The notes under the pieces are model-generated. The model made no database searches. It had not been told where the DNA came from and worked only from the letters and a program-made list of their open reading frames with translations. A DNA stretch of 64,000 bases from the NCBI GenBank assembly GCA_963837925.1, contig CAWIPK010000003.1, forward strand, positions 1,358,441 through 1,422,440, in the 5' to 3' direction. Shown in pieces: positions 5,543-19,484 of the stretch. The translations under genes were made by a program, and so were the position numbers. The DNA comes from an uncultured Chloroflexia bacterium (GTDB taxonomy: Bacteria > Chloroflexota > Anaerolineae > CG2-30-64-16). The stretch's first letter is position 1. Every line of letters begins with the position of its first letter.

Positions 5543-5986
5543 ATGGACAGACAGGAACTGGCGGACGAGTATTTCCGGCAGGGTTTTAGCTGCTCGCAAT
5601 CGGTGTTGGCCGCTTGTGCCGGGCGCTTCGGGCTGGACGAGCAGACGGCGCTGCGGGTGGCAGCCGCGTTCGGCGGTGGGCTGGCCCGCAGTGGGGAAAC
5701 TTGCGGCGCGGTCTCGGGCGCGTTGATGGTGATCGGGCTGAAGTATGGCCCGGTTACGCCAGGAGACAAGCCTGCCAGGGACGAGACCTACCGCGCCGGC
5801 CAACGACTAATGGCCGCCTTCGCCGCCGAGCGCGGCTCGACGACCTGCCGCGTTCTGCTGGGCTACGATCTCAGCGATGCAGTTCAGCGACAGGCGGCGC
5901 ACGACGCGGGCGCGACCCGGGCGGTCTGCCCTGCGCTCGTGCGCGCGGCTGTTCGGCTGCTGGAGTCGGATGGGGTGCTGGACTGA
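5543..5986 (+). CDS. C_GCAxxG_C_C family putative redox-active protein
   Basis: GFSCSQSVLAACAGRFGLDEQTALRVAAAFGGGLARSGETCGAVSGALMVIGLKYG matches the family hallmark. ATG at 5543 preceded by AGGAGG. Confidence 0.75.
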   Translation: MDRQELADEYFRQGFSCSQSVLAACAGRFGLDEQTALRVAAAFGGGLARSGETCGAVSGALMVIGLKYGPVTPGDKPARDETYRAGQRLMAAFAAERGSTTCRVLLGYDLSDAVQRQAAHDAGATRAVCPALVRAAVRLLESDGVLD

Positions 5987-6320
5987 GCGGTCGTCGTGCC
6001 GGCAGTGGGCACCGCCGATAGGTCTGGTCTCACAGCGACGCGGCGCGCAGCAAGCCACACGGGGCCGATCAATCGCGCCACGCCACCAGCCGCTCGGTTC
6101 TGGGAGCCGGTTTCAGCGGGAAGCGGGCCTCGGAAATCGGCGTGCCGACTATCTCTATCGGCCCTGGTTCGCGCTGCCTGCGCAGCATTCTGAACCGGAA
6201 TTTGTCGCCCCGATGGTAGTCCTTCGAATGAGAGGGCCAGTCGCGGAGGTGTTTGCCTGCCGGGAGTCCGTCTCCCCGGCCGAGCCATCTACCTCTGCTC
6301 GCCTGGAAGGTCGGCGCCGG

Positions 6321-7004
6321 TCACCGATCGCGTGCGGGGAGCGTCGCAAGGTACCCGCGCACGCGCTCGAGCCTGGCGCCGAAGGTCCCTTCGAGGAGAG
6401 CCAGGCCCGGCGAGGGGTGGACCGGGTCGAGAGCGCGCTTCACGCCGTTGCAGCGCGAGCAGGCCGGCACGCAGTTGGCGGCCGTCGTGCCACCGCCGGC
6501 CGATAGCGGGATGAAATGGTCGAGATCGGTGAACGGGCGCACCTGGCAATAGGCACAGAAACGGCGGAAGTGATCCAGCGTGGCCAACCAGTCGGCGAGG
6601 CTGAGGTCGGCGGGCAGACCCTGGGCACGGGCGCGGGCGGCGTGATTACGAACGCGCGCTAGCTCGCGCTGCCGCTCGGGGCTGGAGCAGACCGTGCACA
6701 GGCCGTCCACGTCGCCCGGCATGCCGGTGGAGTAGACAGCACGGCACAGGAGGCAGTGCCGGGTATGGGCGCGCCGGATCTCCTCCACGCAGGCAGCGCA
6801 GTAGCGCGCCCAGCGGTAGCCCGGAATCTCGTCGATGGCCCGCAGTTGCTTGCGCGCGAGCACCGTCCCACAGCGAAAGCACTCGGCCGGCTCGTCCGCA
6901 TAGGCGCCTTCCCTGCCGCGCAGGGCCGCGCGCCAGCGGGCGCGTTCCTCGGCAGCACGGGCGGATGGGCTGCCGGGTGGACAGGCGGAGGAGTGTCCCT
7001 TCAC
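6321..7004 (-). CDS. HNH endonuclease with N-terminal Cys-rich (zinc-finger-like) region
   Basis: HNH motif DLDHFIPLSAGGGTTAANCVPACSRCNGVK at the C-terminus. Several CxxC pairs occur N-terminally. Confidence 0.7.
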   Translation of the reverse strand: MKGHSSACPPGSPSARAAEERARWRAALRGREGAYADEPAECFRCGTVLARKQLRAIDEIPGYRWARYCAACVEEIRRAHTRHCLLCRAVYSTGMPGDVDGLCTVCSSPERQRELARVRNHAARARAQGLPADLSLADWLATLDHFRRFCAYCQVRPFTDLDHFIPLSAGGGTTAANCVPACSRCNGVKRALDPVHPSPGLALLEGTFGARLERVRGYLATLPARDR

Positions 7005-16314: not shown

Positions 16315-16378
16315 GTGACAAAAGTCCCTGACAGATGAGCGAGGACATGCTACCCTGACCAAGACCAGGAGGTAACTC

Positions 16379-16642
16379 ATGTCCAACGCCTATTGTCCCG
16401 GCTCGTCCGCCCTCAAGGGCACACCCACCCTGACCATCAAGACCTGCCCGCAGTGCGGGGCCGACGTCGAGCTGTTCTCCATCGACCTCAAAGTGGCCTG
16501 TGATCGCTGTGGCTTTGTGGTCTACAACAACGTCCAATCCTGCATCCAGTGGTGCCAGTACGCGGAAGCCTGCGTCGGACCAGAGATGTACGAGCGCTAC
16601 AAACGCAAGCCGGCGGCCGGCAGCGAGAGAAAGCCGAGCTGA
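16379..16642 (+). CDS. Cys-rich zinc-ribbon small protein (8 Cys in 87 aa)
   Basis: CPGSS...CPQCGADVELF...CDRCGFVV...CIQWCQYAEAC. Its stop lies 2 nt before the ATG of the next gene, suggesting translational coupling. Confidence 0.5.
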   Translation: MSNAYCPGSSALKGTPTLTIKTCPQCGADVELFSIDLKVACDRCGFVVYNNVQSCIQWCQYAEACVGPEMYERYKRKPAAGSERKPS

Positions 16643-16644
16643 AG

Positions 16645-17475
16645 ATGACGAAGACCAGGCGGCAAATGATCCGGGTCGACGAGGAGAAGTGCGACGGCTG
16701 CGGCCAGTGCCTGCCCGGCTGCCCTGAAGGGGCGCTCCAGGTGGTCGCGGGCAAAGCGCGGCTGGTGCGTGAGAGCTACTGCGACGGGCTGGGCGCCTGT
16801 CTCGGCGAATGTCCGAACGGCGCCCTCAGCGTGGTCGAGCTCGAATCTCCACCCTACGATGAACCGGCCGTGCTCGCGCACCTGCAGCAAACGGCGCCCG
16901 AAGCGCTGGACAGGCACCTGGCACATCTACGCGAACATGCGCCCGAGCTGGCGGAAGAGGCCAAGAGAGCACTGGCAAACGGCGGCCGTCCTGAGCCGGC
17001 GGCCTGTGCGACGCCGCCCGGTATGGCGGGCCGCCCGTCCGCCGAGATACACTTGTGGCCGCCGGATGAAGCGGAGGCCCTCGACAGACAGGCTCCGGCT
17101 GCGCCCCGAGCGCGCCTGTCCTCGGAGCTGAGACAATGGCCGGTGCAGCTGCGGCTGCTGCCGGTGCGCGCGCCCTTCTTCCAGGGCGCAGACCTGACGT
17201 TGGTGGCCGATTGCGTGCCGTTCGCCAAGCCAAACTTCCATGCGGATGTATTGAAGGGCGCGGCCGTGGCGCTGGGCTGCCCGAAACTGGACGACGCTCA
17301 GGCATACGTGGAGAAACTGGCACAAATCCTCAGCGCGAATGACATCCGCCGCCTTAAGGTCGTCTACATGGAGGTGCCTTGCTGCCGCGGCCTGCTCTGG
17401 ATCGCCGAGCAGGCGCTGGCGCGCAGCTTCAAGCAGCTCCCATATGAGACCGAGTTGGTGCGGATCGGGCTGTAA
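16645..17475 (+). CDS. 2x[4Fe-4S] ferredoxin-domain protein with a ~170-aa C-terminal domain of unknown function
   Basis: CDGCGQCLPGCP and CDGLGACLGECP cluster motifs. The C-terminal domain ...LTLVADCVPFAKPNFHADVLKGAAVALGCPKLDD...VVYMEVPCCRGL has additional conserved Cys residues. Confidence 0.7.
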   Translation: MTKTRRQMIRVDEEKCDGCGQCLPGCPEGALQVVAGKARLVRESYCDGLGACLGECPNGALSVVELESPPYDEPAVLAHLQQTAPEALDRHLAHLREHAPELAEEAKRALANGGRPEPAACATPPGMAGRPSAEIHLWPPDEAEALDRQAPAAPRARLSSELRQWPVQLRLLPVRAPFFQGADLTLVADCVPFAKPNFHADVLKGAAVALGCPKLDDAQAYVEKLAQILSANDIRRLKVVYMEVPCCRGLLWIAEQALARSFKQLPYETELVRIGL

Positions 17476-17596
17476 GCGTGCTGCCCAGGACGAGGATCAG
17501 GGAGTTGTAATCCAATCTACAGTGCCTCCTGCCCAAACCGGCTACCTTTGCATTCGCACTGGCCAGCCAGATCAGCGACGTGACGGAGGCAAGCCG

Positions 17597-17890
17597 ATGG
17601 CAGACAATGGACGCGGTGGGCCACGCGAGGCCACACGCGTCGAAGGGAGCCGCTCTCGCGCTCAGCTAGGCCCGGGCATGCGAGTCGAAGGTTTGGACGG
17701 CAGCCACATCGGACGTGTGAAGACGGTGGAGGAGACGCGCTTTACCCTCGACCGTCCCAAGGGGCCCGACCTGTATGTCCCTATGGAAGCCGTGATGGAG
17801 ATCAGGAACGGCAGCCTGGTGCAACTGCGCATCCCCTCGCACTTGATCCACATGCAAGGCTGGTTGAACACGAAGGGTGGTTATTGGTAA
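17597..17890 (+). CDS. DUF2171 (PRC-barrel-like) domain protein, paralog 1
   Basis: GMRVEGLDGSHIGRVKTVEETRFTLDRPKGPDLYVPMEAV...QGW. GGAGG RBS before the ATG. Confidence 0.55.
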   Translation: MADNGRGGPREATRVEGSRSRAQLGPGMRVEGLDGSHIGRVKTVEETRFTLDRPKGPDLYVPMEAVMEIRNGSLVQLRIPSHLIHMQGWLNTKGGYW

Positions 17891-18213
17891 GGCGCGCGAA
17901 GGCGCCGGCCCTCGGGGTGCCTGTCCCCCGGGAAAGCCGCCCTTGGCAGCGGCTCTTCTGGCCGCCGGGCCGGCGAACCACCCACGTGGCATACCTCTTC
18001 GCCCTGCAAGCGCTGGCGAACGCCGCCGTTCCACGCCTGGTTGCCGGCCGGGGCCCTGGCCCCAACATAACCTCAGGCACCGCGCGCGACCTGTCCGCGC
18101 TTGGAACGCGCCCACTCTCGAAGCAAAAAACCTGCAGTTGGAATTGGGCCAACCGGAAGGGGCGTCGGCAGACGTTATACTCCAGACAAGACATCTCAAA
18201 TGGGGGTCGGGAA

Positions 18214-18498
18214 ATGCCTGTGGACGAAAGCAGCGGTCTGCCGACGGGCGGCTATGCGAGCTGGCACATCGGCTTCGGGATGGATGTGGTCGGCGCCGAC
18301 GGAAGCCGGGTTGGGGAGGTCAAGTTCGTCGGCGACAGCGATTTCCTGGTGGACCGGCCCCTGGCACGCGATATATACGTGCCATACGGCGCCTGCCAGT
18401 CGGTCGAGCCGCACCGGGTGATACTGCGTGTACCGGCCGGTGAGGTCGATAACCAGGGCTGGGCCTATTCTGAGCTGGGTGAGGCACCCGGCGTCTGA
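18214..18498 (+). CDS. DUF2171 (PRC-barrel-like) domain protein, paralog 2
   Basis: GMDVVGADGSRVGEVKFVGDSDFLVDRPLARDIYVPYGAC...QGW matches the DUF2171 core FLVDRPLARDxYVP. It has the same architecture as paralog 1. Confidence 0.6.
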   Translation: MPVDESSGLPTGGYASWHIGFGMDVVGADGSRVGEVKFVGDSDFLVDRPLARDIYVPYGACQSVEPHRVILRVPAGEVDNQGWAYSELGEAPGV

Positions 18499-18509
18499 GG
18501 AGACAAACG

Positions 18510-19484
18510 ATGAACAAGACAATCGGCAAGCTGGCCAGGATCGGCCTGGTCGTACAAATCATGCGTCTGCTGGACCGCCGGCAGGAAAGCCGGATGCAGA
18601 GGCTGTTGCGACGGTTCGAGCGGCGCCAATCGTTGACGACGCGCACCACGCAGCAGTTGTCGCAACTGGCCTCGCGCACCGGCAAACAATTGGAACATCA
18701 GGCGCGGGCGCTGCCACTGGTCGGTAACCGTTTCAGCCGTAAGTCACCGGCCAGACGCCTCCTGGGAAATCTGCCCCTGGTCGCTGGCCTGAGCCTGCCG
18801 GCCCTGTCGGCGGTGAGCCTGCAGAGCCTATCTGCCGGGAACATGCCCTGGACGTCAAACCGGCGCGCCGGCATGACAGAGCGGCGAAACGGCCGGACGA
18901 AGACCACGCGCATCGTAACCATGACGCAGACCGAGCGCCTTGCCGGGCTGGGGCGCAACAACCGTTTGCTGGCCCTGCTCGGCTTAGGCACTGCGCTGGG
19001 TCTGGCCGGCGTCTTCGTTTTTGGCCGGCTGGTCCGCACCAGGGGCAGCGGGCGGGGCGCGACGGCCTGGCCGGGCGGATACGAGGGCAGGCAGTCTGGG
19101 TCGACGGGCGCCGGGCAGGCCACAGCCACAATGCAGATGGCTGATCCTGGCGAGGCGGATCGCAGGCGGGAGCCAGACTGGGGTCATGCCGGCCGCGAAT
19201 TCGCCCAGGCGAACCGGCACCATCCGGTGGACGTCGAGGTGCAAGAGGCCGGCGGCAACGTGCGGCCGCTCGCCCAGGAGATGCCGCTGCTCGGGATCGA
19301 CCTGGGCCTCGACGGCGTTCAGATCATGTTGGGGCACGGCGAGGACGAGCGCATGGAGCACGACATCCATGACCCGACCGGGCTGCAGTCAATCACAGAT
19401 GAGAACGGATCGCAGATAGGGCTGGAGATCAGCGCGCGCGATGGGTCGACGACGACGGTGAAGCTGGCCCGACAGTCGAGCTAG
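18510..19484 (+). CDS. Hypothetical membrane-anchored protein (one central TM helix), co-transcribed with the DUF2171 pair
   Basis: GGAG RBS and an ATG 12 nt after the previous stop. TM segment LLALLGLGTALGLAGVFVFGRLV. No recognisable family. Confidence 0.4.
   Translation: MNKTIGKLARIGLVVQIMRLLDRRQESRMQRLLRRFERRQSLTTRTTQQLSQLASRTGKQLEHQARALPLVGNRFSRKSPARRLLGNLPLVAGLSLPALSAVSLQSLSAGNMPWTSNRRAGMTERRNGRTKTTRIVTMTQTERLAGLGRNNRLLALLGLGTALGLAGVFVFGRLVRTRGSGRGATAWPGGYEGRQSGSTGAGQATATMQMADPGEADRRREPDWGHAGREFAQANRHHPVDVEVQEAGGNVRPLAQEMPLLGIDLGLDGVQIMLGHGEDERMEHDIHDPTGLQSITDENGSQIGLEISARDGSTTTVKLARQSS

Follow-up and report, generated by a model that had tools for sequence, protein, structure and literature searches.

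The 64,000-nucleotide stretch of forward-strand DNA analysed here (the window), from an uncultured Chloroflexia bacterium, carries two closely spaced genes, called A and B below, that encode a small cysteine-rich protein and a larger iron-sulfur (Fe-S) protein. Together they are candidates for an electron-transfer module of the FrdX type. The features of the locus are as follows.

16315-16333, forward strand: conserved predicted operator/-35 box GTGACAAAAGTCCCTGACA, 19 bp, of the CRP/FNR type, (T)GTGA-N6-TCCCT, overlapping a CTGACA -35 element
16351-16356, forward strand: -10-like hexamer TACCCT, 17 nt after CTGACA, with the T and A of TAnnnT near-invariant
16367-16372, forward strand: Shine-Dalgarno AGGAGG of gene A, read from the sequence, 6 nt 5' of the ATG
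16379-16642, forward strand: gene A, encoding an 87-residue protein with eight cysteines (Cys8), from the open reading frame list and the sequence
16645-17475, forward strand: gene B, encoding a 276-residue Fe-S protein, apparently of FrdX type, from the open reading frame list and the sequence
16669-16839, forward strand: ferredoxin domain of B (residues 9-65), Pfam Fer4 E 1.2e-11, with one CxxCxxCxxxCP and one Cx5Cx3CP motif
16843-17118, forward strand: residues 67-158 of B, variable His-rich helices (H91, H94, H98) and low-complexity linker, from alignment and model
17119-17472, forward strand: residues 159-276 of B, AF_0155 domain (PF27217), about 118 residues, four-stranded alpha/beta, with invariant C190, C212, C246 and C247

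A sequence-only reading of this DNA had described an 87-residue protein with eight cysteines ending 2 nt before a 276-residue protein, and both the coordinates and the cysteine count are confirmed: the stop codon of A (TGA) occupies 16640-16642 and the ATG of B begins at 16645. Gene B has no Shine-Dalgarno, as read from the sequence, comparable to the strong AGGAGG of A. Translational coupling of the two genes fits this arrangement because of the 2-nt gap and because B lacks a ribosome-binding site of its own. Judged by their alignments, both open reading frames are conserved as proteins. The N-terminus of B, M-x-K-x-[KR]-R-Q, is kept in relatives, with R6 and I9 invariant, and this conservation supports the ATG at 16645 as the start. 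The public record of the identical protein (P0001) is 269 residues long and begins seven codons later, at Met8 (window position 16666); since residues 1-7 are conserved in relatives, 16645 is favoured over 16666. A 308-residue, GTG-started open reading frame at 16549 was also considered as the real B and rejected on the strength of the same N-terminus. A terminator scan found no forward-strand terminator near the pair.

Protein B contains twelve cysteines, at residues 16, 19, 22, 26, 46, 52, 56, 121, 190, 212, 246 and 247. Its match to Fer4 (PF00037) is above the cut-off, as are those to PF12837 and PF13237; a scan with NCBIfam gave generic ferredoxin-domain matches only, all below their cut-offs. 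The sequence-only reading saw two classic CxxCxxCxxxCP clusters here. The first motif, C16xxC19xxC22xxxC26P, is indeed classic, but the second, C46-DGLGA-C52-LGE-C56P, has the form Cx5Cx3CP, with Leu49 in place of the middle cysteine, and is invariant in the aligned relatives. Two classic motifs occur in none of 149 family representatives (0/149), while Cx5Cx3CP is present in 51 of the 149, many of the others being N-terminally truncated fragments. Such Cx5Cx3CP spacing is the [3Fe-4S] motif of SdhB and FrdB.

What had been taken for a single domain of about 170 residues that could not be placed is really three segments: a variable, His-rich helical part (67-112), a low-complexity linker (113-158) and the PF27217 domain of about 118 residues (159-276). 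Across the family the middle of the protein varies, with His-rich helices in some clades and none in others, and it ends in a near-invariant C-P-[SG] motif some 30 residues ahead of the AF_0155 domain. The assignment to PF27217 (AF_0155) is taken from the precomputed annotation of P0001, 100% identical to B, which lists Fer4 families as well, and from that of every relative, rather than from rescoring the window's own B. In the alignment the domain is marked by W165-P166-x-Q168, A-D-C190, H199, G-C212-P-K-L-D and M-E-V-P-C246-C247-x-G; C190, C212, C246, C247, W165, P166 and Q168 are all present in the window's protein and are 95-100% conserved in the 149 representatives. AlphaFold2 predicts a four-stranded beta-alpha-beta domain, with predicted local distance difference test (pLDDT) scores of 70-94, in which the four domain cysteines sit at or just after the C-terminal ends of the first three strands. 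As modelled, this clustering of cysteines at strand ends is typical of a cofactor site.

The family to which B belongs is very large and is found in anaerobic bacteria and archaea. Full-length B has more than 7,900 related clusters at 90% identity, and a profile of the C-terminal domain alone collects 2,271 representatives at 50% identity, among which the AF_0155 domain is almost always C-terminal in proteins of 150-300 residues. It is highly abundant in gut Firmicutes, where single 90% clusters hold up to 12,582 sequences. Two long AF_0155 "fusions", P0289 and P0255, one with glycosyl hydrolase family 3 (PF00933) and the other with an FtsY-like-looking P-loop protein, are apparently chimeric or frameshifted metagenome calls. 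The name "ATP-binding protein" that NCBI gives to one relative of B was set aside as meaningless, no P-loop being seen in the sequence. A relationship of AF_0155 to MvhD or HdrB-CCG was likewise rejected, as no such match appeared in any fold or sequence search, none of which was aimed directly at these proteins. A literature search on PF27217 and DVU2544 returned no papers, and the term "AF_0155" retrieved only JC-virus accession numbers.

The eight cysteines of protein A lie at residues 6, 23, 26, 41, 44, 55, 59 and 65 and are laid out as an N-terminal C6-P-G, a zinc-ribbon part (C23PxC26...C41xxC44G) and a helical C55-x3-C59-x5-C65. All eight are invariant across homologs of 28-87% identity; across phyla and architectures (28-67% identity) the invariant set is C6-P7-G8, C23, C26, E31, C41, C44, C55, W58, C59, A62 and C65. 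The structure model places strands at 18-22, 29-33, 38-40 and 47-49, with both CxxC knuckles on beta-hairpins, and the eight cysteines appear to make up two metal sites and not redox disulfides. The view that the pair combines a small Cys-rich metal protein with an Fe-S protein is borne out. No Pfam family and no solved structural relative were found for A, and searches of PDB profiles were negative. Individual ribbon families match A only below threshold in the Pfam and PDB profiles; RUBY_RBDX, for one, scores 16 bits, its cut-off being 26.5. Rubredoxin itself was tried and rejected, with an hhalign probability of 4% and only the CPxCG knuckle aligned. Among the 46 close homologs, Pfam entries are on record only as weak zinc-ribbon (LysW) matches in five. 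Homologs in JGI are often named "ribosomal protein S27AE", a label that reflects the zinc-ribbon knuckles only.

The two genes are adjacent in every Chloroflexi-type relative whose flanks were inspected, and the adjacency recurs in other phyla in both gene orders. Stand-alone versions of A, 75-95 residues long, lie directly before or after B with gaps of -10 to +12 nt, including 2-nt gaps and 4-nt overlaps. The sequence-only reading had suggested looking for fused versions, and these exist: P0204 (342 residues) and L040 (352 residues; L numbers denote the loci of relatives) carry A at the N-terminus of B. The A domain is also fused to an HD domain upstream of hcp-B, to a ferritin located after B, and to a low-molecular-weight phosphatase (ArsC-like) directly upstream of B (L021, L071). 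Coupling of A and B is therefore constant in the window's clade and recurrent elsewhere, fusions included, without being obligate. The behaviour of A is that of a small, autonomous redox or metal protein that has a number of partners.

Several other settings of A were seen, confined to a small number of lineages. One is an archaeal-looking block, in the order SRAP, A, NadA, ThiS, TtuA, FdhD. Another block consists of TrmB, a small sulfite/nitrite reductase, SnoaL, a polyferredoxin, a cupin, an unknown gene, A and Hcp, and B may be present or absent; in archaeal-looking Hcp clusters a 92-110-residue protein without a Pfam match (MVGDEKDGYYCSICGG...; L176 3203-3496 and homologs) regularly precedes A, after the cupin. 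A further arrangement is PALP, NIL, NifS, A, B, NifU, AIRS, CoA_binding (L009 1533-7129); the order NifS, A, NifU, AIRS occurs with B in L009 and L124 and without it in L158. These NifS/NifU blocks are a setting of sulfur or Fe-S trafficking and differ from the nitric oxide (NO) stress context described next.

The surroundings of B were surveyed in a scan with one genome per species, which found at least 596 loci, and the best 80 of these, from more than 12 phyla, were analysed. They come from Chloroflexota, Planctomycetota, Geobacter and Desulfuromonadales, Bacillota, Bacteroidota, Ignavibacteria, Chlorobi, WOR-3, Omnitrophota, Zixibacteria, Methanoperedens, Methanoregula, Bathyarchaeota and Aenigmatarchaeota. 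Open reading frames were called, the neighbouring proteins clustered, and cluster representatives checked with Pfam. Of the 80 loci, 56 have at least one gene linked to NO or reactive oxygen species no farther than 5 kb from B. The neighbours include an Rrf2 regulator (23/80, in a cluster that includes Cupin_2 proteins too), hemerythrin (17/80), Hcp (15/80), a DUF1858-like protein (15/80), a YccM-type polyferredoxin (7/80), superoxide reductase (5/80), flavodiiron protein (4/80), YgbA_NO (3/80), NrfA (2/80) and Crp/Fnr (2/80); in 12 of the 80, B is followed by a gene for an ArsP_1 permease. Gene orders recur within lineages: Rrf2, cupin, A-HD, Hcp, B, ArsP_1 in Planctomycetota; Rrf2, B, A, Hcp in Omnitrophota and Margulisbacteria; and, in the window's closest relatives, Crp/Fnr, [small ferredoxin], A, B, [NrfH, NrfA]. 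An annotated plasmid of Roseburia sp. 831b (RefSeq) carries hcp, a Crp/Fnr regulator and a "4Fe-4S binding protein" in that order, the last with 36.5% identity to B across 97% of its length; FeoAB lies near this gene. The sequence-only reading had left partner and function blank, and it is here that the blank can be filled in part, as the neighbourhoods of the B family consistently indicate defence against nitrosative and oxidative stress. The link of the FrdX-type family to NO-stress regulons is strong and crosses phyla.

Some lineages vary this theme. In gut Firmicutes (L092-L094, 5001-6880) a divergent Crp/Fnr gene is followed by B, a 51-residue rubredoxin and two DUF2249 genes, so that a true rubredoxin fills the slot beside B that A has elsewhere. 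Geobacteraceae and Desulfuromonadaceae have a stand-alone AF_0155 protein (about 151 residues, from C-G-C-P-G-S) between a DUF1858-like 73-residue protein and hemerythrin (L028, L029, L041, L049, L053-L055, L072, L078, L080 and L090, most at about 5680-6960). This triad has the appearance of a YtfE/RIC protein split into parts, into which an Fe-S domain has been inserted. In L016, L017 and L044 (for example L044 3154-4853), which are metagenome-assembled genomes of Zixibacteria, a delta-proteobacterium and Geothermobacter, a multihaem cytochrome and a protein of the YgbA_NO family ("nitrous oxide-stimulated promoter") lie directly upstream of B.

A predicted promoter precedes the pair. The box at 16315-16333, directly after the stop codon of the DUF2461 gene and upstream of A, is the sole match in the window at three or fewer mismatches, where 0.01 would be expected. 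Its consensus is TG(T/C)GACAAAAGTCCCTGACA, 19-20 bp long, also written as TGTGACAAAAGTCCCTGACA. Twelve copies could be aligned, the window's included, upstream of A, B or the small ferredoxin gene, and their flanks are unconserved. The 11 copies in relatives are located at L001 7937; L007 7298 and 7636; L008 6423; L010 6627; L011 6210 and 6575; L012 2829(+) and 2787(-); L015 5502; and L097 2757. In L012 there is one box on each strand, serving divergent A and B genes. In 11 of the 12 aligned promoters the distance from CTGACA to a TAnnnT hexamer is exactly 17 nt. Scanning with a strict sigma-70 consensus called no promoter near A-B, as expected because the promoter is read as activator-dependent. 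Transcription would start at about 16363, which would put the centre of the box some 41.5 bp upstream, the geometry of a class II CRP/FNR promoter. Genes for Crp/Fnr proteins adjoin in L007, L010, L011 and L097, and their recognition helix reads R-E-x-x-x-R, which we take to be the CRP/HcpR type that reads TGTGA. In Chloroflexi-type loci the box is probably the operator of the adjacent Crp/Fnr (HcpR-like) regulator, a prediction that provides a candidate operator for a Chloroflexi HcpR-like regulon. Its position between DUF2461 and A sets A-B apart as a separate transcription unit.

Taken together, these observations suggest, with a probability of about 0.5, that A and B are the two subunits of a multi-centre Fe-S module for electron transfer, of the FrdX type and induced by stress, which serves enzymes encoded elsewhere. 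In outline, a Crp/Fnr-family (HcpR-like) activator would bind the box about 41.5 bp upstream of the start and turn the operon on under nitrosative or redox stress, and A and B, co-made by translational coupling, would then associate. The ferredoxin domain of B would hold a [4Fe-4S] cluster on C16, C19, C22 and C56 and a three-Cys cluster, probably [3Fe-4S], on C46, C52 and C26; a further Cys-ligated centre could form at the C-terminal edge of the AF_0155 sheet from C190, C212 and C246/C247 together with a linker cysteine. A would add two Cys4 sites, one in the ribbon and one made of C6, C55, C59 and C65. A and B would pass low-potential electrons to enzymes of detoxification or repair whose genes lie elsewhere in the genome. 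The hybrid cluster protein, as a reductase of NO or hydroxylamine, would be the prime candidate acceptor, with A/B in the part that Hcr, an NADH-dependent reductase, plays in E. coli.

The literature on frdX gives this proposal its context. The gene encodes a ferredoxin-like protein and is co-transcribed with hcp under HcpR (PMC545781, PMC1274295), a co-expression found in Desulfovibrio, Desulfuromonas, Geobacter and clostridia (PMC545781, PMC1274295, PMC4534486). Induction by NO or nitrite and NO sensitivity of a mutant are on record only for C. difficile and Desulfovibrio (PMC12915319, PMC4534486); NO induces the C. difficile gene (CDR20291_2075) about 220-fold and a knockdown of this gene is sensitive to NO, yet its function "remains unclear" (PMC12915319). 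For class I Hcp, the physiological electron donor is stated as unknown (PMC10210160). It is these two gaps, the donor of class I Hcp (PMC10210160) and the function of FrdX (PMC12915319), that make the module of interest. B is a new member of a family that is named and biochemically uncharacterised, FrdX and AF_0155 being names rather than a well-characterised family with an established function. The family's architecture can now be defined as a 4Fe/3-Cys ferredoxin domain, a C-P-[SG] linker and an AF_0155 domain, and a recurrent, unannotated Cys8 partner, mislabelled "ribosomal protein S27AE" by JGI, is identified beside it. This partner, its fusions and the Chloroflexi operator appear to be undescribed: Pfam has no family for A, and the frdX and hcp literature searched mentions no such partner. 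A bolder and rather doubtful extension would make A a previously unrecognised portable metal-centre domain linking clients to electron supply, and A plus B the missing donor for class I and III Hcp in strict anaerobes. The proposed clients would be Hcp-cluster enzymes, HD-domain proteins, ferritin, ArsC-like phosphatases and NifS/NifU, with the AF_0155/FrdX ferredoxin as one electron source.

A number of observations weigh against the proposed FrdX-type module. Membership of B in the FrdX family (HcpR regulon) is inferred from gene context and not from direct comparison with a named FrdX, and the structure models of A and B are of moderate confidence (pLDDT 66 and 70). No homolog of hcp, nrfA, flavodiiron protein, superoxide reductase, Rrf2, Crp/Fnr or ArsP was found by tblastn in the window, and both client and regulator thus go unseen in this genome. 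There are also many class I hcp genes that lack neighbours altogether (PMC10210160), and since NrfA is fed by NrfH and quinol, its presence near B shows co-regulation rather than partnership. The window's B also departs from its own family: Arg130 (CGC, 17032-17034) replaces the cysteine of C-P-[SG], which is cysteine in 25 of 25 close and 14 of 14 diverse aligned relatives, and the third centre of this protein may differ or be impaired as a result. Another linker cysteine, C121, lies nine residues upstream of Arg130; the nearest relative, P0002, keeps cysteine at both positions (121 and 130), and a single C-to-T change in the CGC codon would give back Cys. Lastly, the earlier description of the pair as a "dedicated" module is not borne out, the partnership not being an obligate one. 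An A domain is found within 6 kb of B in 18 of the 80 B loci, leaving 62 without it. On the A side, where the best 80 metagenome loci from a scan with the A8 alignment were considered and the 51 flanked on each side by 700 bp or more counted, B lies within 3.5 kb in 11 and is missing from the other 40.

Other explanations of the pair can be weighed against the same evidence. It is possible, though unlikely, that A, B or both serve the assembly or repair of Fe-S clusters, either by carrying clusters or by acting as the reductant in persulfide or cluster assembly once NO has done damage. The blocks with NifS, NifU and AIRS (L009, also with PALP and NIL, and the similar L124, both with B; L158 without B) suggest as much, as do the Fe-S or sulfur-transfer genes beside A (NadA, TtuA, ThiS and FdhD), the Geobacteraceae triad that resembles a split YtfE/RIC, the A-ferritin fusion and the FeoAB genes near the Roseburia homolog. 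Such contexts are nevertheless a minority, and several come from single lineages, while Hcp, the regulators and the detoxifying enzymes are commoner neighbours. A generic electron donor would explain them equally well, cluster assembly needing electrons, and searches of Pfam, NCBIfam and PDB profiles found no similarity of A or B to U-type, A-type, Nfu or Mrp/NBP35 scaffolds and carriers. A quite improbable alternative, modelled on ferredoxin:thioredoxin reductase or HdrB, makes the AF_0155 domain catalytic, a ferredoxin-driven thiol/disulfide, S-nitrosothiol or arsenic-thiol reductase with an Fe-S cluster beside C246-C247, and A its Cys-rich substrate or adaptor. This would account for the invariance of the P-C-C-x-G motif and of the strand-end cysteines, for the fusion of A to an ArsC-like phosphatase directly upstream of B in L021 and L071, for ArsP_1 after B, and for the ArsR, Thioredoxin_3 and DsbD genes nearby in L009; the arsenic-type context, however, is mostly that of Planctomycetota, and all eight cysteines of A look like parts of metal sites.

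Two further explanations deserve very little credence. The sequence-only reading placed the pair in a cluster with DUF2461 upstream and DUF2171 paralogs downstream, from which a local functional module could be proposed. The positions are correct, and L001-L006 share the gene order Fpg, DUF2461, A, B, DUF2171, DUF2171-like, DUF5335. These are, however, near-identical relatives (A is 87% identical), no other inspected clade retains the neighbours, which are best regarded as incidental, and the promoter box, which begins immediately downstream of the DUF2461 stop codon, marks A-B as a transcription unit of its own. The downstream genes themselves are DUF2171-like small open reading frames at 17594-17890 and 18200-18498 and a DUF5335 gene at 18510-19484, and no link of these to A or B was found. 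Just as improbable is a role for A, B or both as an NO or redox sensor, in which an NO-labile cluster would signal to a regulator. The setting in NO-stress regulons would suit a sensor, and the lone N-terminal cysteine of A with its C-x3-C-x5-C recalls the C...C-x2-C-x5-C of WhiB-like proteins, a resemblance and not a homology. Yet no DNA-binding domain or signalling output domain is present in either protein, genes alongside already supply dedicated regulators (Rrf2, Crp/Fnr), and the fusions to enzymes and to the ferredoxin suggest electron delivery instead.

How the proposed FrdX-type module relates to known systems can be set out part by part. Protein A shares with rubredoxins and zinc ribbons the C-P-x-C-G and C-x-x-C-G knuckles on two beta-hairpins, but a profile of A compared with the rubredoxin of gut Firmicutes reaches only the 4% probability given above, the Pfam ribbon and rubredoxin-like matches stay below their cut-offs, and the extra invariant Cys4 (C6, C55, C59, C65) on its helical C-terminal part has no solved counterpart that we found. 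The second motif of B has the cysteine spacing of the 7Fe ferredoxins and of the third cluster of SdhB/FrdB, with a hydrophobic residue at the middle cysteine; it differs from the SdhB/FrdB cluster in that a fourth ligand could come from the linker, from Asp47 or from A. The C-terminal domain of B bears the W-P-x-Q, G-C-P-K-L-D and M-E-V-P-C-C motifs and the four domain cysteines of PF27217, itself a sequence family only, without the C-P-[SG] cysteine found elsewhere in the family. Like Hcr, the partner of class II Hcp in E. coli and a dedicated electron supplier encoded beside hcp (PMC1274295, PMC10210160), members of the B family lie next to hcp, but Hcr is an FAD/[2Fe-2S] NADH oxidoreductase, whereas B shows no signature of flavin or NAD(P)H binding and its sequence is unrelated.

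The closest system remains FrdX, for which the Roseburia protein linked to hcp and crp, with its 36.5% identity over 97% of the length, serves as the nearest proxy. The window's copy differs in having no hcp or regulator within 64 kb, the adjacency to hcp holding at the level of the family (15 of 80 loci and the Roseburia plasmid), in its pairing with a Cys8 partner absent from the frdX literature found, and in the arginine that stands for a linker cysteine. What the two share is a ferredoxin-like family encoded beside hcp and regulators of the Crp/Fnr (HcpR-type) or Rrf2 families, a putative CRP-like box upstream, and an expected role in electron transfer under nitrosative stress.

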